64,000 bases of DNA from a virus (Duplodnaviria; Caudoviricetes). The notes below the pieces were generated by a model that saw only the letters and a list, made by a program, of their open reading frames with translations, did no database searches and was not told where the DNA came from. The position numbers and the translations under genes were made by a program. Of the stretch, positions 25,823-51,837 are shown piece after piece; the first letter of the stretch is position 1, and the number at the start of each line of letters is the position of its first letter. The stretch covers positions 1 to 64,000 of the IMG/VR virus record IMGVR_UViG_3300044957_001482. One strand, written 5' to 3'.

Positions 25823-26572
25823 TTATGAGGTGACGTTGTCTACTATGGCCAGTTCCACAGCGGTTTGCGGTGTGCCTGACTTGATCACTGTGCCTTCGTC
25901 GGTGAAGAAGTTGGCCGCATAGCGTTGATTATTGACCACACTGGTAGCAGCATAATCACTGCCGCCGGCCCAGTTCAACAACCACTTGTTGGTTAATTTG
26001 CTGATGGTAGTGGCCGTGGAGTCGCCCAGGGTATAGGTAATGGCCATCAATCCTGCAGCAGGTGTGGTATCGTCATCCAGCACGCAGACTCCCACTAGGT
26101 TACAGGTACCATTGCCGTTGTTGGAACCTTCTGCAGTGGCTGTAAACACTGTGCCCACTGCATAGCCAGCTGGTGCGCCAAACAGTGTCCAGTCAGTGCT
26201 GCCCACTGTGGCAATGATGTAGGAATTTCCAGTCACGATGCCTTCGTCCTGGACGGTAGTGGTTGATCCTACCAGGTACTTGTGGGCACCTTTTTGGCGG
26301 ATGATGTAACCAGTGGCCACACCTTGACCCGATCCTGATGTCAGCTGTATGTTGACAATCACTCTCACTCGAGGAAATGTGGTGCTGGGGGTATCTGTGG
26401 GGTTGGCTCCACCAACCACACCCAGAAACTGTGTGCTGTTGAGGGTGTCAGCGGTGTTGTAGACCGGATTGGTCAGGCTTCCAAAGTTAGGAAAGCCAAG
26501 ATCCACACCGACTGACTCTCCGCTGTTGCCCGAGCCGGTGGAAAGTTTTTGAATTTTGAGAGGACGTCCCAT
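25823..26572 (-). CDS. Virion structural protein (MGRPLK N-terminus)
   Basis: Strong SD AAGGAG; GYIIRQKGAHKYLV motif; Thr/Gly-rich. Confidence 0.6.
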   Translation of the reverse strand: MGRPLKIQKLSTGSGNSGESVGVDLGFPNFGSLTNPVYNTADTLNSTQFLGVVGGANPTDTPSTTFPRVRVIVNIQLTSGSGQGVATGYIIRQKGAHKYLVGSTTTVQDEGIVTGNSYIIATVGSTDWTLFGAPAGYAVGTVFTATAEGSNNGNGTCNLVGVCVLDDDTTPAAGLMAITYTLGDSTATTISKLTNKWLLNWAGGSDYAATSVVNNQRYAANFFTDEGTVIKSGTPQTAVELAIVDNVTS

Positions 26573-26578
26573 TTGTTT

Positions 26579-26662
26579 TCTCCTTTAAAGAAGTCCGATG
26601 TGGGTTCTAGCCACTACGCGGTGGTTTCCGCATAAAACGCCGTTTGCGTTGACAAGTATTTA
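26579..26662 (-). promoter_or_regulatory. TAAATA late promoter plus four-hairpin 5' leader
   Basis: Stems AACGC/GCGUU, UAUGCGG/CCGCGUA, GUGG/CCAC, CUUCU/AGGAG. Confidence 0.5.
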
Positions 26663-31008: not shown

Positions 31009-31017
31009 ATTTAGTTC

Positions 31018-31329
31018 CTAACTACAAACACATTTTAAATGATAGTCTTTGACTGCTGCCTTAATTGTATCTTCGGCAAGAATACTGCAATGTATTTTTA
31101 CAGGCGGCAATGATAACTCTTCCGCAATGTGAGTATTCTTTATGCTGACAGCTTCATTGAGTGTTTTACCTTTAATTCATCTGATTACAAGACTTGAACT
31201 GGCAATAGCACTACTGCAGCTGTAAGTCTTGAATTTTGTATCTTCAATAATACCTTGATCGTTAACTTTAATTTGTAGTTTCATTACATCGCCGCAGGCA
31301 GGTGCACCTACCATACCTGTTCCTACAGT
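31018..31329 (-). pseudogene. iscU: Fe-S scaffold IscU, 5'-truncated with in-frame stop
   Basis: VGTGMVGAPACGDVMKLQIKV...LPPVKIHCSILAED; TGA at 31177-31179; YGCGSA motif reads YSCSSA. Confidence 0.85.
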
Positions 31330-31342
31330 TATTTTACCCAAC

Positions 31343-31368
31343 AAAAAAGCACCCGAAGGTGCTTTTTT
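31343..31368 (-). terminator. Rho-independent terminator after the major capsid gene
   Basis: AAAAAAGCACC-UUCG-GGUGCUUUUUU with C(UUCG)G loop. Confidence 0.9.
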
Positions 31369-31394
31369 GATACTTCGTAAAACTGATTTTTTGA

Positions 31395-41355: not shown

Positions 41356-42198
41356 ATGACCATGACTACCAACCCATTACAACAGTTTTTCCGGCAGCCT
41401 GCGATCTATCTACGCCTGCCCAGCGGTGGCCAATTCTGGCCACCGGGCAGTGTTGACATCCCGCAGACCGGAGAACTACCGGTGTTTCCCATGACTGCTG
41501 CCGACGAGATAACCTATCGTACGCCCGACGCACTGTTCAACGGGCAGGCTGTGGTCGACGTGGTGCAGAGCTGCATACCCGCGATCAAAAATGCCTGGGC
41601 CATACCCAGCATCGATCTCAATCCCATCCTGGTGGCCATACGCATCGCCAGCTATGGACACGAAATGGAGATTGGAACCACTTGTCCTGCCTGCAGCACC
41701 AATGCTGAATTTTCGCTGGACCTGAGATCAGTGCTGGATCAGATGCGAGCACCAGACTACACCACAGCTCTGCGCCAAGGAGACCTTGAAATCGCATTCC
41801 ACCCCATGAGCTATCAGCAGCAGAATGCCAGCAATCTCGAACAGTTTGAAAGCCAGCAGATCATGCGTTCGGTGCCCGACAGCGGACTGCCTGAGCGTGA
41901 AAAAGTGCAACAGATGTCAGAACTGATAAAGACCATAACACGTCTCACCATACGAGCACTCACTGCCAGCATTGCCAGCGTGCGCACTCCGCACGCCCTG
42001 GTCACTGATCCTGCACACATCCAGGAATGGCTGGAAAACTGCGACCGAGCACTGTTCACTGAGATACGCAATCATGCGATCAAACTGCGCACTGACACCG
42101 AACTGCGGCCCATGGATCTCACTTGTCGTGACTGCGGACATCGATACGAGCAAGGACTGACTCTGGACATGGCAAGTTTTTTCGAACTCGCCTCCTGA
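41356..42198 (+). CDS. Baseplate hub assembly protein (gp26-like)
   Basis: NPLQQFFRQP, PMTAADEI, AIRIASYG, CPAC and CRDC zinc motifs. Confidence 0.75.
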   Translation: MTMTTNPLQQFFRQPAIYLRLPSGGQFWPPGSVDIPQTGELPVFPMTAADEITYRTPDALFNGQAVVDVVQSCIPAIKNAWAIPSIDLNPILVAIRIASYGHEMEIGTTCPACSTNAEFSLDLRSVLDQMRAPDYTTALRQGDLEIAFHPMSYQQQNASNLEQFESQQIMRSVPDSGLPEREKVQQMSELIKTITRLTIRALTASIASVRTPHALVTDPAHIQEWLENCDRALFTEIRNHAIKLRTDTELRPMDLTCRDCGHRYEQGLTLDMASFFELAS

Positions 42199-44155: not shown

Positions 44156-44595
44156 CCTACCAATTTGCTCGCATAGATCTCAACAAGACATCTTACCAGG
44201 CCACAGTGGACTGGCAATATATCACGGATCGCGATGACCCGACACTGACCAAATTAAATAATATCTACCGCACCTACTGTATCTACAAACGCTTTGCCTC
44301 GGTCATGCCCGTGTTTCCAAGTAGATACCGTGACTCCATGTCCGATGTCATTGGCTATTATGACCAGGGTGAATTGGTGGCCTGGAGCCTGATACGAAGA
44401 TTTGACTCTCACAATGCATTGTGTGATCAATTTGCCTGGACTTATCATCGACCAGGCATGAGACTGGGAATCGAAAGCATGAAGACCGAATGCGCCATCT
44501 ATCGAGCACGAGGTTTTCACTATCTCTACCTTGAGCAAGCGCATTTGTACAAGCAAGAGATCGACGGATTTGAATTACTAGGACCTATGACATAA
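44152..44595 (+). CDS. GNAT-fold protein resembling the Arg-tRNA-protein transferase C-domain
   Basis: YYDQGELVAWS...LG...GFHYLYLE...YK pattern; ATGA overlap. Confidence 0.45.
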   Translation: MTYQFARIDLNKTSYQATVDWQYITDRDDPTLTKLNNIYRTYCIYKRFASVMPVFPSRYRDSMSDVIGYYDQGELVAWSLIRRFDSHNALCDQFAWTYHRPGMRLGIESMKTECAIYRARGFHYLYLEQAHLYKQEIDGFELLGPMT

Positions 44596-44927
44596 TGGAT
44601 TTATACACTATCTGGGCCGACAAGGACGGCGACATTTCGGATGTAGAGTGGGTAGCAGGAATGAAGCAATTTTTTGATCATCTGGTTACCGAGGGCAAGA
44701 TGCAGGGCTACAGAATCACACGTTGCAAAATGGGATTTCGTAGCATCTCAGACATGCCCGAATGGATGATCATCATGGAATTCCGGGACATGGCACAGAT
44801 GGATCAGGCATTCCGCCGTGTGGCTCGCAAAGAAGGCGAACTGGAGGATGCTCATAGATCGTTCAATCAGTTTGTGGCAGGCAACATACAACATGCACTG
44901 TTCCGAGACTGGCCAGATGACATCTAA
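44595..44927 (+). CDS. DUF6614-like protein
   Basis: YRITRCKMGFRS...EWMIIMEF...HALFRDWPD. Confidence 0.55.
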   Translation: MDLYTIWADKDGDISDVEWVAGMKQFFDHLVTEGKMQGYRITRCKMGFRSISDMPEWMIIMEFRDMAQMDQAFRRVARKEGELEDAHRSFNQFVAGNIQHALFRDWPDDI

Positions 44928-45337
44928 GATGTGCTTCGCACATCTGTTCTTCGCTTGCGCTCGAACTGTTTGTCTGTACTAAGTATCATCCAGATTTAGT
45001 GGTCATACTTGCCCGTTGCCGGGCAAGTAATGGTCGCATCATCCGAGTTTACGCAGCCATTTTGCACGAGAAGATTTGTACTTGATGAACAGACAATTCT
45101 GTCGAGAACTGTCGGTCTAATACGTACAACGGAGGTGGTTGTGCTGTACCCCCTACTTCAGCCTTGACTCACAACGGAACGTGTGTGACCCTGTGCAAAC
45201 AAAGTCGACCACGCCAAGGTTGTGTCTTTTTCACAGAGCCTTGATCATTTCAGCCTTAGTTAGCTGTTGCCTTTGACACCCAAGATCCGCCGGTAAACTA
45301 ATACAAGCTCAATGGGGACCAGTCCTGTTCACTGGTC
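44927..45337 (-). ncRNA. Candidate large structured non-coding element (ncRNA or origin)
   Basis: ~400 nt with no ORF of 60 aa or more; at least five hairpins, with GNRA/GAA loops on the minus strand. Confidence 0.4.
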
Positions 45338-46364
45338 ACAGAGTCTTTGAAAGTTGCCTTACGAAAGTGTGATATGTGTTTGGTTCTAACAGTTGATGTA
45401 ATTGTTGTGTGTTGGTAAATTTTTTGAGGCCATACGATCTAAGATTGAGATTATGATGATATAGTAAATGATGTTGAATAGCTGCTTCACGCATAAGGTC
45501 GAGGTCAAATCGGTCAAGCGCAAGATTCTGTCCGTTGAGTATGGCCTGTATGATGCGGTCAAATGCCCAGACAAATCGCATACGGTCATAGTGAATCCTG
45601 GACCAAACTCGATAGAGGCTCAACCAGGACGACCATCTATCTTCGACCAACTCAACACCAACATGCTTCAAAAGATCGGGCATTGCTTGATCTAGACAGA
45701 ACCAATTTTCTGTGGCTTCTAGACCATAGTAATTACAATGATCGAATCGCTCGTCGCTGAATCCTGGCTGTGCAGGGGGCATGTTGAGAGCCAGGAATTC
45801 TCGCAGATCCCAGATTTGATCGAGTCCTTGTGATTTCCATATCGCATAATCCCGGCCAAAGAAAAATTCAATGAAATCGTGATTTTGTTGGTCCGCGGTC
45901 TGGTTGACAGCCGAAGCATCTTGCCATTTTTTTCTCAGTTTCCGAGGTTCCCATTTTGTATGGTACCGATGATACTGGCTGGACAACCGCACACGTATCA
46001 TGTAGTCGCTGTGTGTACATGCTAGATCCACGGTTTTTTGATCTAGCACAGGGTCAAATGGCCATTTATTGTCCGAGTCGATGTCAATTTGACCACGTTC
46101 AAAATTGTGAAGATACACTATCTGTGTGGTTGATTGGGACAATGGCCGTAGCGTGTCAACACACTGTTGAAGTTCGTTGAGGCTGGTAGCATGATTCACA
46201 GCAAACTGGTGAGCATTTCGCTCAGTCAATGGGTTGTCTCCGACTTCACAGGTGCTGTTGGATTTTACATGGTAGTGATGATCCTGGCCAGACAGCCTCA
46301 GGATGCTCCAGGCCAAAAAGGTGCCTCCGACTGCAGGATCTGTGATTAGAGAAATCAACGGCAT
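45336..46364 (-). CDS. Hypothetical protein, possibly sulfotransferase-like
   Basis: N-terminal LITDPAVGGTFLAW loop. Confidence 0.45.
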   Translation of the reverse strand: MPLISLITDPAVGGTFLAWSILRLSGQDHHYHVKSNSTCEVGDNPLTERNAHQFAVNHATSLNELQQCVDTLRPLSQSTTQIVYLHNFERGQIDIDSDNKWPFDPVLDQKTVDLACTHSDYMIRVRLSSQYHRYHTKWEPRKLRKKWQDASAVNQTADQQNHDFIEFFFGRDYAIWKSQGLDQIWDLREFLALNMPPAQPGFSDERFDHCNYYGLEATENWFCLDQAMPDLLKHVGVELVEDRWSSWLSLYRVWSRIHYDRMRFVWAFDRIIQAILNGQNLALDRFDLDLMREAAIQHHLLYHHNLNLRSYGLKKFTNTQQLHQLLEPNTYHTFVRQLSKTL

Positions 46365-46870
46365 AAATCACGCACGGTATTGGCATTGAGTTCCCAGAAC
46401 AGCTCATGGTCCATGATGATCCACTGGCCACGAAGCCCGGCGGCATAATTGAAATGTCTGGTATAGATCAATGAAGTCTGATTGGGCTGCAACTGAACAG
46501 CCACATACGTGCCTTTGCGATTGAACTTCATAAAAATAATGTTGAAATCGCCGAGATCAGACACAGCCATGCATTGATCGATCCAGTCGTCCAAAATTTT
46601 GACCGATCCTGAAAAAAGCTGATGAAAAGGAAAGTTCTGGTAATTTTTGCATTCTGCGTTGAGCCTGGAAAACGATTCGCCGGGTATGATGTCGCCCTTG
46701 AATGTGCGTATCTGTCCTTCGTGCAACAACTGTTTGCGATGGGTGTTTTTTCCACCTATGTACGCGCCCGACCCCGGCGCTCGCATGAATCGCTCACCGT
46801 AGAGTTCGGTGAGAAAATCCGCGATGTAACGCTCAAAGGAGTTGCCTTTGGTTTTGCTGGGACTGGGCAT
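46355..46870 (-). CDS. Holliday junction resolvase (PD-(D/E)xK)
   Basis: KTKGNSFER, RAPGSGA, GDII, ECK. Confidence 0.75.
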   Translation of the reverse strand: MPSPSKTKGNSFERYIADFLTELYGERFMRAPGSGAYIGGKNTHRKQLLHEGQIRTFKGDIIPGESFSRLNAECKNYQNFPFHQLFSGSVKILDDWIDQCMAVSDLGDFNIIFMKFNRKGTYVAVQLQPNQTSLIYTRHFNYAAGLRGQWIIMDHELFWELNANTVRDLCR

Positions 46871-46874
46871 GGTG

Positions 46875-47453
46875 TTATTGTTTATGATCTAGATTGACCC
46901 AGGCAGTAATTTCCTCTATACAGGTGTTACTTTGCATGGCAAGACACAGCGTTATCATGTCAATGATATCAGTTAGAGAATGGCCAAGGTCTGTGGGTTC
47001 TGCGAGTGCCCGACTCGTTGGCTTCGCCAATTGATCGACATTGAGCAACGTTGTCCTGAATCTCACATGGTTTTGCTTAAAGGCTCTGCTCCATTGATGA
47101 CTGTGATATCGCAAAACTGCTTTGTTGGCAGCATAGAGATCATGGTCCAACACAGGCGGAATTTCCGAGACACTGGCCACTCCACCTATATTAATAATGT
47201 AGCCGGATTTATCACACTGCTTCCAGGTTGTAGCAAGTTGGTTGAGTAATTTGGTTTGGCAAAAATCACCGTTGATTTCGCCATATACCCCATCATATGC
47301 ATTGTTTATAAAAATATCATGGTCAAGACTTGCCTGTACTAGATCATTGATATTATTTCGTAGATCGTGCCCGGTACTGCGGCTAACACTGCTTCCCTTA
47401 AAATGTTGACAAATGGCCAGGCCCAGGCCTTGATTTCCGCCGGTTATCAACAT
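46875..47453 (-). CDS. Short-chain dehydrogenase/reductase
   Basis: TGGNQGLG, NNA, YAANK. Confidence 0.8.
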   Translation of the reverse strand: MLITGGNQGLGLAICQHFKGSSVSRSTGHDLRNNINDLVQASLDHDIFINNAYDGVYGEINGDFCQTKLLNQLATTWKQCDKSGYIINIGGVASVSEIPPVLDHDLYAANKAVLRYHSHQWSRAFKQNHVRFRTTLLNVDQLAKPTSRALAEPTDLGHSLTDIIDMITLCLAMQSNTCIEEITAWVNLDHKQ

Positions 47454-49213
47454 TTGACTTCTATGTCGGAACTATAATTGGTAAATCCGCCTTCTTTGAC
47501 CACACGCAAGATATTGTTCACACGCCCGACCAATTCGTCTCGATGACTTACTAGCCAAATTGATTTTTTACGATCTCGGCTTATCTTTTTCAATAACGAT
47601 AGAGAATTTTCCATGCCTGCAGTGTCCATGCCCGAATCAATTAATTCATCAATAAACAGGAGATTGATGGAGGAATACAAACTTTCCCACACATCACGGA
47701 ATGCCCAGCTCATTGACAGTATCAATCGATTGCGCTCGCCGCGACTCAAGTTATCAAAATCAAGATCGCGCCCTAGCTCTGAGATCTCGACTGTGAGATC
47801 GTTCTGGAATATGACCCGATGAGGCAATCCAATGCGGTCAAGATAATAAGTGAGACGAGAATTTAGATAGGAAAGATTTTGTTCGATGATTTTTTTGCGT
47901 ATGAACGAATCTTTGTTGGTGAGAAGCTTGAGCAAGAAGTCCTGGTGATCTTGCAGCCGAACAAGTTCGTTTAGCGAGTCATAGTCTACCACTTGCAGAG
48001 CCTGTTTCTGCATCTCTACGATTTGCTCACCGTAGGGATCAATTTCCCCTTGCCGCAGCGCAAGGTCTCGACGCAACTGATCTAGGCTGCTGCGATGATT
48101 CAGCGCCTGTTCTAGATCATCATAGAACACTGCGGGCATTGGACCAGCGATGCCCAGCCGAGCCAAGGCATCGGTATGTTCTGTTCGTTGGGTCTGATTT
48201 GCAAGTAGTTGCGCGACAGTGTCTTTGAGCTCGATCTGCTTGTTTTGTAGCAAGTCGTCCTGGTGATGGTCGTGCAGTTCGTGCCCGCAGGCGTGACACC
48301 GGCGTTCCTGTAATTTTTGTATATCCTTCCTGAGAGCAGCCTCGGCCTTGACAAGACGTGCCAGATCAAGGTCTATGCTGACAATCCATTTTTGTGCGTC
48401 CACACGCGCTGTAACAGCGCGGTTGTATTCGTCTAATGCACGGTGCGATCTGATTTCCTGATCGATATCGATATGCTCCAGTTGGTCTATAGCAGTCTGC
48501 AGTGCAACACAATCTTCTTGTTGCTTTTTGATCCACAGTGTCTGGCGCGTTTTAAGACTTTCGATCTGTTGTTCGATTCTACGATTGGCTTCCTGCAACG
48601 CTCGGATACGTAACTCTTCGGCAACAATGGTTTCCCTGGTAGAACGATTCAGCTCCTTGATACGTTCTGCTCGCTCGCTCAGCTGTGTAATGCCCAACAG
48701 TTGTTCGATGATTGCTCTCTGATCATTGGATTTGAGACTAAGAAACGGTTCGGTATAGGTATTTAGAGCTACAATGTGTCGGAACATGTCGTGGCTCATT
48801 CCTAGCAATGTGTCGATGGCAACCTGTGTTTCTCTGCTATCGCCTTGGCTGTCATCGGTTACCACTTGTTCCTGGTGGTTAACATAAAATCTGAGTACAT
48901 TGGGTTTGCGACCTCGTTCCACTCGGTATTCCTGTCCGTTGACAGAAAAATCAAGACTGACCAACATGTTCTTACCGTTGGTTTTGTTGATGAGATTGTC
49001 TCGACGGATGTTGGTCAGGGCCTGACCATACAGCGCGTAACTCAGTGCATTGATAATAGTGGTTTTACCGGTTCCGTTTCTCGATCCATCGCCACCGAGG
49101 TCTAGATTTTCTCCCAGCACCAACGTAAGATCCTGTCGGTCAAAATTAACAGTCTGCGATGCGTTGCCCACACTCATGAAATTTCGCACAATAAGATGTT
49201 TTATCTGAATCAT
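47447..49213 (-). CDS. Recombination ATPase gp46 (Rad50/SbcC)
   Basis: NGTGKTT Walker A, CHACG zinc hook, LSRGE signature, LFIDE, VSH. Confidence 0.93.
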   Translation of the reverse strand: MIQIKHLIVRNFMSVGNASQTVNFDRQDLTLVLGENLDLGGDGSRNGTGKTTIINALSYALYGQALTNIRRDNLINKTNGKNMLVSLDFSVNGQEYRVERGRKPNVLRFYVNHQEQVVTDDSQGDSRETQVAIDTLLGMSHDMFRHIVALNTYTEPFLSLKSNDQRAIIEQLLGITQLSERAERIKELNRSTRETIVAEELRIRALQEANRRIEQQIESLKTRQTLWIKKQQEDCVALQTAIDQLEHIDIDQEIRSHRALDEYNRAVTARVDAQKWIVSIDLDLARLVKAEAALRKDIQKLQERRCHACGHELHDHHQDDLLQNKQIELKDTVAQLLANQTQRTEHTDALARLGIAGPMPAVFYDDLEQALNHRSSLDQLRRDLALRQGEIDPYGEQIVEMQKQALQVVDYDSLNELVRLQDHQDFLLKLLTNKDSFIRKKIIEQNLSYLNSRLTYYLDRIGLPHRVIFQNDLTVEISELGRDLDFDNLSRGERNRLILSMSWAFRDVWESLYSSINLLFIDELIDSGMDTAGMENSLSLLKKISRDRKKSIWLVSHRDELVGRVNNILRVVKEGGFTNYSSDIEVKC

Positions 49214-49306
49214 TCTATTTTTATAGATTCCTATAGTGATAATACAAAAGTTCGATAACTGATTGTGATGTTCGCCGGGGGGGTCGTCGACAAAAATACA
49301 TTGCAA

Positions 49307-50824
49307 TTATACTTGATATCCCATTGCAGATGCAATTTCTCGATGAGTATCGGCAAACGTTTCATGTCTTCGTTGGTCAAGCATTGACATGTATTCCACG
49401 AATTCCTGACCGTTGCTACCGGCACTGGCTGATATTCTTTTTGCCAAATTTGAAAGTTCTTTGATATTGTGATTTTTATACTTGGAAACCACCAATTCCT
49501 TTGCTAAATCGGTCATGTAATCGACACAAAGATATGTTGGCTGGTCTAGATAGTTAAGAGTGATATTTAGATCTTGTTCGCTGGCCCAAAAAAACAATGA
49601 CTCGAGATACAAAACATTCTGTATGTTAACTGTTGGCATTATGTAAATGCGTAGTTGGCTGTCGGCCCAACTTTTTAACTTGTTGATATTGTCTTGTATT
49701 TCTTTCCAAGATCCGCCACGTTGCAATTCAAATCTTTGGTTGGTGTCATCGATGCTGACAGCTATGTCTACCGATTGAAATTTTTTTAACAATGGCATGA
49801 ATTTTTCTGGATAAACAGAACCATTGGTATTGATGTGTAGACGTATGTGATCACTGTCTCCGGACTGGATAGCCAGTTCTAAAAACAAATATATGTTTTT
49901 GAGCAACAACGGCTCGCCACCGTAAAAATCGATATTGATAAGGTTGGGCAACAGATTGATCAGTTGTTCGAGAAAATCTTTGTTGTGGTCAAACCATCTG
50001 CCCTGGTACAGTAAAGACAAAATTTCAGTTTTATCATCGTGTGCGGAGTATCTCAACTTTTCAACAGCGATACTCGAGCTGGAGGCCGGGGAACATATCC
50101 TGCATTTGAAATTGCAAATATTACCGGCCTTGATGTCAATGGATTGCAGCGTTGGATTGTCAATGAGCTCACTCAACAAATGTTGTCGATACAGACTCAA
50201 ATGATTTTGTCGATTGCTGGTCAGCCCATTTTTTTCAAGATTCCAGCAATGACTGCATCCAACCGGCTGCTTGCCGTCAGACAATTCTCGACGCAGAGCG
50301 GTAAGGCTGGTGCCGTGAAATATATTTTGCATGGTATCCGTGGATACCGAACCAATTTTGCCTTGATAAACACAACACGGTGCATAATGTCCGGTATTGC
50401 TAACAGCCAGGTGCATCCAGGGCATGGGGCAAAGGGTCTGTTCGTTGATCAAAAAATTGTCAGGCAATATTTTACCGGAATCTATGTCGTGAATTTCACA
50501 AACAATGGGCGACGAATCTGCATCACCGTATACTCGGTGGCTGAGATCAAACAGATGCTGAGTTGGCTCGCCGCAAAAAATCAATATAAAAAAATTGCTG
50601 ATATCTACAAGTTTGGCTGCCCGTTGTATATGATCGGCCAATTGCTGGCTTGGCGCATGTTGACAATAAAAAACAATACGTTCATTGTGTTGATACTCAA
50701 ATCGATGCAGGCTTGTTAATTTTCTATAGATAGACCCGGTGGACTGATTGATTGTAGACAGATCGATCGACTCGATGACCAAATATCTCGTTCCGATGTA
50801 ATCCGATACTCCTCTATTCATCAT
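49307..50824 (-). CDS. Radical SAM protein with SPASM/twitch domain, AT-rich
   Basis: CPMPW...PCC...CSHC; CNFKCRIC; FYGGEP. Confidence 0.85.
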   Translation of the reverse strand: MMNRGVSDYIGTRYLVIESIDLSTINQSTGSIYRKLTSLHRFEYQHNERIVFYCQHAPSQQLADHIQRAAKLVDISNFFILIFCGEPTQHLFDLSHRVYGDADSSPIVCEIHDIDSGKILPDNFLINEQTLCPMPWMHLAVSNTGHYAPCCVYQGKIGSVSTDTMQNIFHGTSLTALRRELSDGKQPVGCSHCWNLEKNGLTSNRQNHLSLYRQHLLSELIDNPTLQSIDIKAGNICNFKCRICSPASSSSIAVEKLRYSAHDDKTEILSLLYQGRWFDHNKDFLEQLINLLPNLINIDFYGGEPLLLKNIYLFLELAIQSGDSDHIRLHINTNGSVYPEKFMPLLKKFQSVDIAVSIDDTNQRFELQRGGSWKEIQDNINKLKSWADSQLRIYIMPTVNIQNVLYLESLFFWASEQDLNITLNYLDQPTYLCVDYMTDLAKELVVSKYKNHNIKELSNLAKRISASAGSNGQEFVEYMSMLDQRRHETFADTHREIASAMGYQV

Positions 50825-51837
50825 AGTGTGCGATAGATGTTCATTAGCAATTTTGGATCGTAAAATTCCGATTCAAGCCGGGCAATCTGATCGATCACAA
50901 TCTGATCCACGGATTCAAACTTTACATCACCGGGCGCCATATCTTCTTCCAGTGCAGATTGTTTGTTGGGCATAAGTGCTATCTCTTGCAATGCATATTT
51001 GCCAGCAAATGTTTCTTTAATATAATTGGCTTCCTCATAAGAAATTTCAATATCTAGCTGGACTCGGACATGCATCTTGGGTTTCAGTATTTGATCCCCG
51101 CGATCAATTAAGGTTGACAAGTCAAATACATTGTAAAGAGGCTGATCGGGCCAGGCATGATATTCGGGCTCCGCACCCCAAGGCAATATCATGCAACCAC
51201 GTTGGTCATCGCCGGCATCGGCAAAGTTATGGGGGAAACAGTTTCCAATGTAATTGATGTTGTTCTTGTGCTGACGTAGATGAAAATGTCCAGAAAAGAC
51301 TTTTCCAAACCCTCGAAAGTGCTCGGCCTTGATCTCACCATGATCGGGCATTTCGACCATGGCATTCATTTTAAAATGTGGTAATTCAAAATGACCAAAC
51401 ATATACTGACCGGACATTTTTTGGATTCGCTTGTGATCATCTCCTACCAGCCACGGCGCGATCACAACATCACCTTCGCGGAACCAATCATTGCATATGT
51501 GTATGTTGGGCAGGTGCTGTGCCCAGGAAGCTCCGTGTATGTCGCGCCGATCTCGATAGTAGAGATCGTGGTTGCCGGGAATGAAGAAAAATTGCGAAAA
51601 TGCCGATGACAATTTTTCTAGGCTCCTGAGGCTGAAATCCAGAGTATGCAAATTGATAGATGCTCGGTGATGATGCCAGTCGCCTAGAAATAGTCCGGTT
51701 TCGCATTCATGTTCTTGAGCCATTTCGATGACCCAATCAACAAATCGTTCACAGTCTTGATTGTGAACCACACTGTTTGATTTCAACCCAAAATGAATGT
51801 CAGTGAATGCGATTGCCTTACAAAACAAGTTTGCCAT
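50821..51837 (-). CDS. Recombination nuclease gp47 (Mre11/SbcD)
   Basis: FTDIHFG, LGDW, GNHD, SGHFH. Confidence 0.93.
   Translation of the reverse strand: MANLFCKAIAFTDIHFGLKSNSVVHNQDCERFVDWVIEMAQEHECETGLFLGDWHHHRASINLHTLDFSLRSLEKLSSAFSQFFFIPGNHDLYYRDRRDIHGASWAQHLPNIHICNDWFREGDVVIAPWLVGDDHKRIQKMSGQYMFGHFELPHFKMNAMVEMPDHGEIKAEHFRGFGKVFSGHFHLRQHKNNINYIGNCFPHNFADAGDDQRGCMILPWGAEPEYHAWPDQPLYNVFDLSTLIDRGDQILKPKMHVRVQLDIEISYEEANYIKETFAGKYALQEIALMPNKQSALEEDMAPGDVKFESVDQIVIDQIARLESEFYDPKLLMNIYRTL

Follow-up and report, generated by a model that had tools for sequence, protein, structure and literature searches.

A conserved multi-pseudoknot element downstream of gp46 in T4-related freshwater phages, probably a member of a large family of structured RNAs

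Introduction

The DNA studied here, referred to as the window, comprises the first 64,000 nucleotides of the virus record IMGVR_UViG_3300044957_001482 (Duplodnaviria; Caudoviricetes), a 98-kb IMG/VR record with a CheckV completeness estimate of 28%. Two converging open reading frames (ORFs), 44595-44927 on the plus strand and 45336-46364 on the minus strand, enclose 408 nt in which the only ORFs are short (45-54 aa). The next largest gap noticed in the list of window ORFs of at least 100 aa is ~386 nt (31009-31394). A first inspection of the letters without database searches, called here the sequence-only reading, had described a gene-free gap between convergent genes at this place, and the ORF ends at 44927 (+) and 45336 (-) show that the gap is real. 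That reading had offered two alternatives, an unnamed large non-coding RNA or a replication origin, and had named homologues, covariation and a search of Rfam as ways to tell. What does the gap contain?

The element under study spans 44927-45337 on the minus strand, ~411 nt from helix P1 through the terminal hairpin P11. It is conserved, it has no conserved ORF, and its minus strand has a fold with at least ten covarying helices and two pseudoknots. We consider it one member of a large family of highly structured non-coding RNAs of ~400-430 nt, with a probability of about 0.7.

Results

Conservation of the gap

Homologues were sought in a starting sample of 80 related loci with gp46. When the minus strand of the gap was used in blastn and nhmmer searches, homologous stretches were found in more than 50 of the 80 loci, on the gp46 strand every time. 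Identity to the window element was 92% in locus L011, 73% in L020 and ~70% in the others, over up to the full 408 nt. An iterated profile, with which one strand was searched, placed the element in 59 of the 80 loci. A 22-base degenerate pattern taken from the most conserved part matched at least 120 viral contigs, and the profile confirmed 117 of the 120 listed. At least 154 distinct element sequences remained after removal of duplicates. The search for homologues proposed by the sequence-only reading thus returned many of them in viral contigs. No reading frame is common to 25 homologous stretches, and the indels in the alignment of relatives are not multiples of three.

The carriers are uncultured freshwater T4-related phages, and the element is common in one such clade. 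A blastn search of the gap region against cultured phages gave no match. By gp46, the closest cultured relatives belong to the Pseudomonas PA5oct group (~50% amino-acid identity), in which the gene order matches: late sigma factor, SbcD, gp46, baseplate hub. The nhmmer profiles found nothing at E<=10 in the syntenic locus of PA5oct (L326, NC_071039.1, 15070-17200). Tiny hypothetical ORFs and unannotated gaps, the largest of ~660 nt, occupy that place.

Fold and covariation of the minus strand

The minimum free energy (MFE) of the minus strand is -135.6 kcal/mol, compared to a shuffle mean of -117.7 (z -3.32), and none of 100 shuffles equalled it. For the plus strand z was -1.72, and 5 of 100 shuffles were as stable. 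RNAalifold, run on 16 full-length relatives, returned 77 pairs, with compensatory changes in 35, but left out an obvious hairpin; the structure was therefore built by eye and with mutual information.

This curated structure was tested on 90 sequences less than 90% identical to one another. Standard pairs made up 92.1% of the cells, compared to 35.7-43.7% in slid controls, and double-sided changes occurred in 56 of 66 pairs as against 31-38 in the controls. The covariation score of 0.463 (slid controls, 0.065-0.094) was reached by none of 500 shuffles. The core model comprises P4, P5, P6, P7, P9, P10, P11, a small extra hairpin in the common subtype and two pseudoknots, PK1 and PK2 (Table 1). 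The 5′ domain of the window subtype (P1, P2, P2a and P3) was tested on 16 sequences, in which it was 94.8% paired (29-51% in slid controls) with double changes in 11 of 22 pairs, a count in which the covariation of P3 is understated as the window row was shifted by one column. G-U cells outnumber A-C cells by 569 to 114, and pairing is 92.1% on the minus strand and 84.0% on the other; because of this surplus the fold is assigned to the minus strand of the window. In the curated structure, covariation is therefore both strong and strand-specific.

P1 opens the 5′ domain, which is specific to group A, and overlaps at its 5′ edge with the stop codon of the upstream ORF. The pairs of P2 are invariant and so uninformative; in the enclosed helix P2a, 5 of 7 pairs are double-changed. 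P7 closes a junction that contains P6 and a variable hairpin. The latter is long in the window and in L011, L020, L026 and L031, while most relatives have a short GNRA-capped stem or nothing. PK1 is formed between the strand after CCG and the P6 loop, with GUCAU/AUGAC and GUCAG/CUGAC as compensatory examples in the alignment; in PK2 the apical loop of P5 pairs with the segment just 5′ of the first of two direct repeats. At the other end, P11 lies against the convergent gene's stop codon and is the probable 3′ terminus of the element; the C-GNA-G loop of P11 is present in 64 of the 90 sequences. In the common subtype, pairing of the extra CUCGCUUCGCUCG segment with P10 was considered and rejected, as the changes in this segment covary internally and not with P10.

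All five hairpins marked by the sequence-only reading are helices of the model (P1, P4, P6, P9 and P11). A repeat search recovered three of them as perfect inverted repeats: 45317-45323/45331-45337 (7 nt), 45006-45015/45020-45029 (10 nt, 4-nt loop) and 44927-44934/44938-44945 (8 nt, 3-nt loop). The stems at 45216-45242 and 45131-45153 are present, at those positions, in the MFE fold of the minus strand. The motif CAACGGA, which had been seen twice, corresponds to the repeat family ACAACGGA at 45126-45133 and 45171-45178; one copy is the 5′ strand of PK1 and the other opens the variable hairpin. Taken together, it is nearly certain that a structured single strand is what has been conserved here.

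Two direct repeats with matching variable bases

P9 is flanked by two repeats with the consensus CUC-R-GAUGA-N and UCU-R-GAUGA-N. These segments are near-invariant, with just 2-5 variable positions, and the variable bases of the two copies match. The purine R is the same in both repeats in 134 of 137 sequences, and N in 136 of 137 (U/U 74, A/A 44, G/G 18); the 2-3 bases preceding each repeat often match too. No third alignment column has high mutual information to the variable positions, and no conserved complementary 7-mer was found within 6 kb.

The two repeats probably pair with one another. A possible pairing is U-A, C-G, R-U, G-A, A-G, U-R, G-U; in L040 the tandem G-A is replaced by G-C/C-G in both repeats, and in MFE folds the repeats pair together in about one-third of 88 sequences. 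Such a helix would be nearly two-fold symmetric with the matching positions as symmetry mates, a possible sign that the binding partner is symmetric as well. The same-base covariation of the repeats presents a precise structural puzzle.

Relation to the Polynucleobacter-1 motif

The window was scanned with cmscan against 4227 Rfam families, and the gap region 44600-45700 also at E<=10. No family matches the gap at the gathering score, and none gives a credible match at E<=10; this covers GOLLD, ROOL, group I and II introns, transfer-messenger RNA (tmRNA), RNase P, the signal recognition particle RNA and 6S. In particular RF01718 (Polynucleobacter-1) was found neither in the window at the gathering score, nor at E<=10 in 44600-45700, nor in the whole 98-kb record. 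No tRNA or tmRNA was found in the window by ARAGORN. The single Rfam match in the window at the gathering score is a full-length freshwater-2 motif at 26570-26651 (-), with 79.1 bits (cut-off 49.9), directly upstream of the ORF 25823-26572 (-).

The relatives differ in this respect. A permissive Rfam scan of four related loci gave RF01718 hits of 121 and 113 bits (cut-off 37) in L084 and L161, directly upstream of the stretch homologous to the window core. With a profile of our own, seeded from the L084 hit, a domain of the Polynucleobacter-1 type was located in 125 of 177 core-bearing loci, among which contigs may repeat; it lies on the strand of the core and precedes it by 7-15 nt. In these 125 loci, profile positions 70-374 of the window element align directly 3′ of the RF01718 motif. 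The remaining loci comprise 28, including the window, with the P1-P3 domain, 14 with other 5′ ends and 10 cut by the contig end. No Rfam 15 family matches the core of ~290 nt, with its two pseudoknots, the repeats and P10-P11.

As judged from these alignments, the 141 nt catalogued in Rfam are just the 5′ third of the full RNA, which is ~430 nt long and has interchangeable 5′ domains. Rfam files RF01718 as a small RNA gene. A table in the main article of Weinberg et al. 2010 (PMC2864571) gives Burkholderiales and fresh water/estuary as the sources of Polynucleobacter-1 and classes it as a likely RNA that may be cis-regulatory. The literature searched on Polynucleobacter-1, large structured phage RNAs and recombinase-linked non-coding RNAs, exclusive of the supplements of PMC2864571, holds no account of the larger RNA. 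The kind of molecule, a large structured mobile-element RNA without assigned function, is already known, as is one domain of most relatives. The full architecture, the 5′ domain of the window, the two pseudoknots, the matching repeats and the enzyme neighbourhoods were not found in Rfam 15 or in the literature searched.

Gene neighbourhood in phages

The genes around the element are those of a T4-related phage (Table 1), and the description of the locus by the sequence-only reading as downstream of a gp55-47-46-resolvase operon is correct in outline. The element closes a unit of gp47, gp46 and variable genes, and in most loci lies ~10-60 nt from a convergent DUF6614 gene. One preprint (10.1101/2024.04.14.589459) attributes anti-Druantia type I activity to an ORF of phage DruSM1 that is a predicted DUF6614 member. 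The genes between gp46 and the element vary by locus. A gene after the element is present in a few loci; it lies on the same strand in L003, L009 and L010.

Among the loci compared (L003, L009, L010, L005), radical-SAM/SPASM genes shift position and in some lie directly after the RNA on the same strand; L005 has two radical-SAM genes between gp46 and the RNA. The 342-aa ORF directly upstream of the element in the window is a movable cargo gene: a homologue lies after the RNA on the opposite strand in L020, L080 and L013, and the gene is absent from the closest relative, L011. Its family offers a weak structural lead to sulfotransferases. A search for loci related through this ORF as query gave no relatives.

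A 144-aa SegE-type GIY-YIG protein (PF19835, E 1.4e-32) is encoded next to the element in most phage relatives. Its gene ends at most 40 nt upstream of the element in 91 of 117 common-subtype loci, and at most 60 nt upstream (33-52 nt observed) in 12 of 21 distinct window-subtype loci. The protein is encoded in L005 (12503-12937) and ~100 other loci, and is 74-77% identical in ten group-A loci listed. The gene behaves like a conserved gene and not like a sporadic homing endonuclease. PHROGs names this family (phrog_447) 'NAD synthetase', a label that looks wrong. The GIY-YIG gene is absent from the window and from its 98-kb record.

No promoter consensus was found upstream of the element. A terminator scan, in which a GC-rich hairpin followed by at least five U in 8 nt was the criterion, did not flag P11; its sole flag was on the plus strand at 45206-45222. 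In relatives, P11 is followed by 2-4 U residues.

Table 1. Positions of the element's helices, pseudoknots and repeats and of the neighbouring genes in the window
Feature	Position	Strand	Observation
P1 hairpin, GACCAGU/ACUGGUC	45317..45337	-	7 pairs, 5 double-changed; 100% paired in 16 sequences
P2, CCCA 45316-45313 with UGGG 45282-45279	45279..45316	-	encloses P2a (45308-45289)
P3, 4-bp hairpin with conserved 8-9-nt loop	45251..45266	-	stem UUGC/GCAA -> CAGC/GCUG -> AGGC/GUUU
P4 hairpin, CAAGG..UGUG / CACA..CCUUG	45215..45243	-	5/5 pairs double-changed
P5, long G-U-rich hairpin, apical loop forms PK2	45179..45214	-	12/12 double-changed, 89.6% paired
PK1, GUUGUG 45175-45170 with CACAAC 45143-45138 in P6 loop	45138..45175	-	99.3% paired, 3/5 double-changed
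P6 hairpin, GGGGGU/ACCUCC, 11-nt loop	45131..45153	-	99.8% paired, 3/6 double-changed
P7, GAAG 45159-45156 with CUUC 45073-45070	45070..45159	-	4/5 pairs double-changed
Variable hairpin	45076..45129	-	inverted repeat and alignments
PK2, P5 loop UUUGCAC 45199-45193 with GUGCAAA 45067-45061	45061..45199	-	7/7 double-changed, 86.6% and 95.3% paired
Direct repeat 1, AUGGC .. CUCGGAUGAU	45038..45060	-	core 45047-45038
P9, 10-bp hairpin with GCAA loop, between repeats	45006..45029	-	4/8 pairs double-changed
Direct repeat 2, AUGAC .. UCUGGAUGAU	44985..45006	-	core 44994-44985
P10 hairpin: stem, tandem G-A step, 2-bp GC stem, GCAA loop	44946..44966	-	8/8 double-changed
P11 terminal hairpin, C-GAA-G triloop	44927..44945	-	8/8 pairs double-changed
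Baseplate hub	41356-42198	+	
DUF6614 gene, conserved convergent neighbour at element 3′ end	44595..44927	+	PF20319, 3.5e-24
342-aa ORF directly upstream of element	45336..46364	-	virus-only family, no Pfam match
PDDEXK/RusA-like nuclease	46355-46870	-	
SbcC-like gp46	47447-49306	-	
Radical-SAM gene between gp47 and gp46	49307-50824	-	
SbcD-like gp47	50821-51837	-	weak Pfam Metallophos, 17 bits (cut-off 21.5); placed by SbcD synteny

Relatives in bacteria

Bacterial genomes were scanned with the same pattern. Among 120 hits, 10 were scored by the profile and 7 were credible, all from Rhodobacteraceae; the others were discarded as chance matches without a credible profile score. Named strains with pattern hits are Rhodovulum bhavnagarense DSM 24766 and Nereida ignava CECT 5292. 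BLAST placed the Rhodobacteraceae version in 3 of 401 genomes sampled, two of which carry it twice; it had no match among plasmids or phages. Between genomes the copies share 96-97% identity, which is what a mobile island would show. One Rhodobacteraceae genome carries two full-length copies 38 kb apart in the same orientation (G389:C1 2682503-2682973 and 2720964-2721432; L328, L332), 96% identical and possibly two islands in tandem.

Of 151 Burkholderiales genomes sampled, 3 gave an RF01718 score above the cut-off. The core downstream of the motif in these genomes is divergent but keeps the plan, with a hairpin between two repeats of matching R, and P10 and P11 after them.

In all nine bacterial loci with enough DNA, zero to a few cargo genes come after the element on its strand, and then the gene for an Xer-like tyrosine recombinase of ~188 aa with no domain other than the catalytic one. 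Its match to integron-integrase models is weak (27-29 bits, cut-off 265). No homologue of this recombinase was found in the phage loci, and no GIY-YIG gene in the bacterial loci. The islands L222, L231, L322 and L323 also encode DUF6641, DUF3768 and DUF6626 proteins, ParE toxins and an AAA ATPase, and in two bacterial orders the RNA has a DUF6641 gene upstream.

Discussion

Nature of the conserved element

The evidence makes it quite probable that the element works as RNA. Whether it is a trans-acting RNA or ribonucleoprotein (RNP) rather than a purely cis-acting 3′ untranslated region (UTR) is evenly balanced. It would share the transcript of the gp47-gp46 operon, as judged from the lack of a promoter consensus upstream and from the preceding stop codon, which touches the element; the RNA would end at the P10-P11 hairpins. 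The product would act as a stable RNA, most likely a protein-binding scaffold, in which the nearly two-fold symmetric repeat helix with its tandem G-A step may serve as a binding platform.

Several points weigh against this interpretation. The expression, the ends and the strand of the transcript are predictions from sequence. Neither a promoter nor a canonical terminator was found for the element, P11 being unflagged and followed by 2-4 U. Folded single-stranded DNA (ssDNA) would give the same covariation, with G-T in place of G-U wobble, and the C-GNA-G triloop is more familiar from stable DNA mini-hairpins than from RNA. The associations with GIY-YIG and recombinase genes are those of neighbourhood; moreover, the window record is without the GIY-YIG gene and the phage loci are without the recombinase, so that neither can be an obligatory partner encoded alongside. 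Three registers of pairing between the repeats were tried, and none accounts for the identical variable bases.

The main rival explanation assigns the conserved fold to ssDNA. The element would then serve in recombination or replication and take up its fold whenever the minus strand is single-stranded, in the manner of integron attC sites or single-strand origins; in the islands the small tyrosine recombinase would act on it, and in phages it would be a hotspot for the insertion of cargo genes. We regard this explanation as unlikely. The recombinase gene after the element in nine of nine bacterial loci agrees with it, as do the cargo genes that vary right beside the element in bacteria and phages, the direct repeats with identical variable bases, which resemble partner recombination sites, the triloops in 64 of 90 sequences, the two copies 38 kb apart in one genome and the 96-97% identity between genomes. 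However, no phage locus has a recombinase homologue, and Rfam files the 5′ domain of the relatives as RNA. The folded DNA sites known are also far simpler than a fold with two pseudoknots, a three-way junction and GNRA-type loops over ~300-400 nt. An attC-like site proper, with a single imperfect hairpin, R and L boxes and an integrase, was rejected, the fold here having ten helices and two pseudoknots. The replication origin put forward by the sequence-only reading is not supported either by skew or by the nature of the conservation, which is that of single-strand base pairs: cumulative GC skew has no clear extremum at 45 kb in this record, which is a fragment, and the 10-nt direct repeats ~53 nt apart could be read as iterons, yet they lie inside a covarying single-strand fold. 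The other alternative of that reading, a large non-coding RNA, is upheld by the homologues, the strand-specific covariation and the lack of a conserved ORF; 'unnamed' holds in part only, as most relatives contain an Rfam domain.

If the element is RNA, it could still be no more than a cis-acting 3′ UTR that stabilises the upstream mRNA and stops both convergent transcription units. Its place at the operon end between convergent genes in most loci, the hairpins P10 and P11 at the extreme 3′ end beside the convergent stop codon and the missing promoter motif would all fit. For such a task, however, one hairpin would suffice, and not ten helices and two pseudoknots kept at ~70% identity; the bacterial copies sit upstream of genes and not at the operon end, a same-strand gene follows in three phage loci, and the terminator scan passed over P11. 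An exclusively cis-acting role is thus quite improbable. A decayed protein gene or chance hairpins might be suspected from the short ORFs in the gap and from the 23 inverted-repeat pairs in 700 nt, of which those of 7-8 nt are common by chance. With no ORF conserved in the 25 stretches, indels out of multiples of three, compensatory changes in 56 of 66 pairs and a minus-strand fold energy never matched by shuffles, this explanation is excluded.

Possible function and significance

For a structured RNA, the neighbouring genes, GIY-YIG in phages and recombinase in islands, suggest by their position a role in DNA cutting or recombination. A more specific and quite speculative scheme, to which we attach little weight, is that the RNA would be the nucleic-acid subunit of a modular DNA-manipulating system and would supply site recognition or assembly to a GIY-YIG nuclease or recombinase that has the catalytic domain only. 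The repeats would then address two equivalent half-sites, which would explain their always-matching variable bases, and such a system would be a new class of RNA-dependent nuclease and recombinase. More generally, an RNA that works with either enzyme would be a new kind of RNA-assisted DNA enzyme. The element recurs in mobile islands of two bacterial orders beside a minimal tyrosine recombinase, and two candidate protein partners are now defined. Large RNAs with several pseudoknots and strong covariation are rare; the few classes known proved to be ribozymes, RNP cores or unusual self-assembling particles.

Comparison with known systems

P10-P11 resemble an intrinsic terminator in that they end a transcription unit and abut a convergent gene. 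They differ from one in that there is no U tract of five or more, they are unflagged, and they would explain only ~40 of 411 nt. The Polynucleobacter-1 model covers only 141 nt, and the 5′ third of the window element (P1-P3) is a different covarying fold; the habitat of that motif, in fresh water/estuary and Burkholderiales, agrees with the carriers of the family.

Guide or scaffold RNAs beside minimal DNA enzymes are known from the IS110 bridge RNA and the TnpB/IscB omega RNA. As in those systems, a structured putative non-coding RNA adjoins a small nuclease or recombinase gene in mobile DNA, and the neighbours here are near-bare catalytic domains (144 aa and 188 aa). However, the enzyme families differ, the candidate guide segments are near-invariant with no target within 6 kb, and the window has neither protein.

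GOLLD and ROOL appear, in a recent preprint (bioRxiv 10.1101/2024.12.08.627333), as large ornate RNAs associated with phages and prophages. The present element is smaller (~400 nt), matches no Rfam model and has no tRNA genes in its window. Like GOLLD and ROOL, it would be a large multi-pseudoknot RNA, as yet without an assigned function, that is conserved in phages and mobile elements and has come to light mainly through metagenomes.

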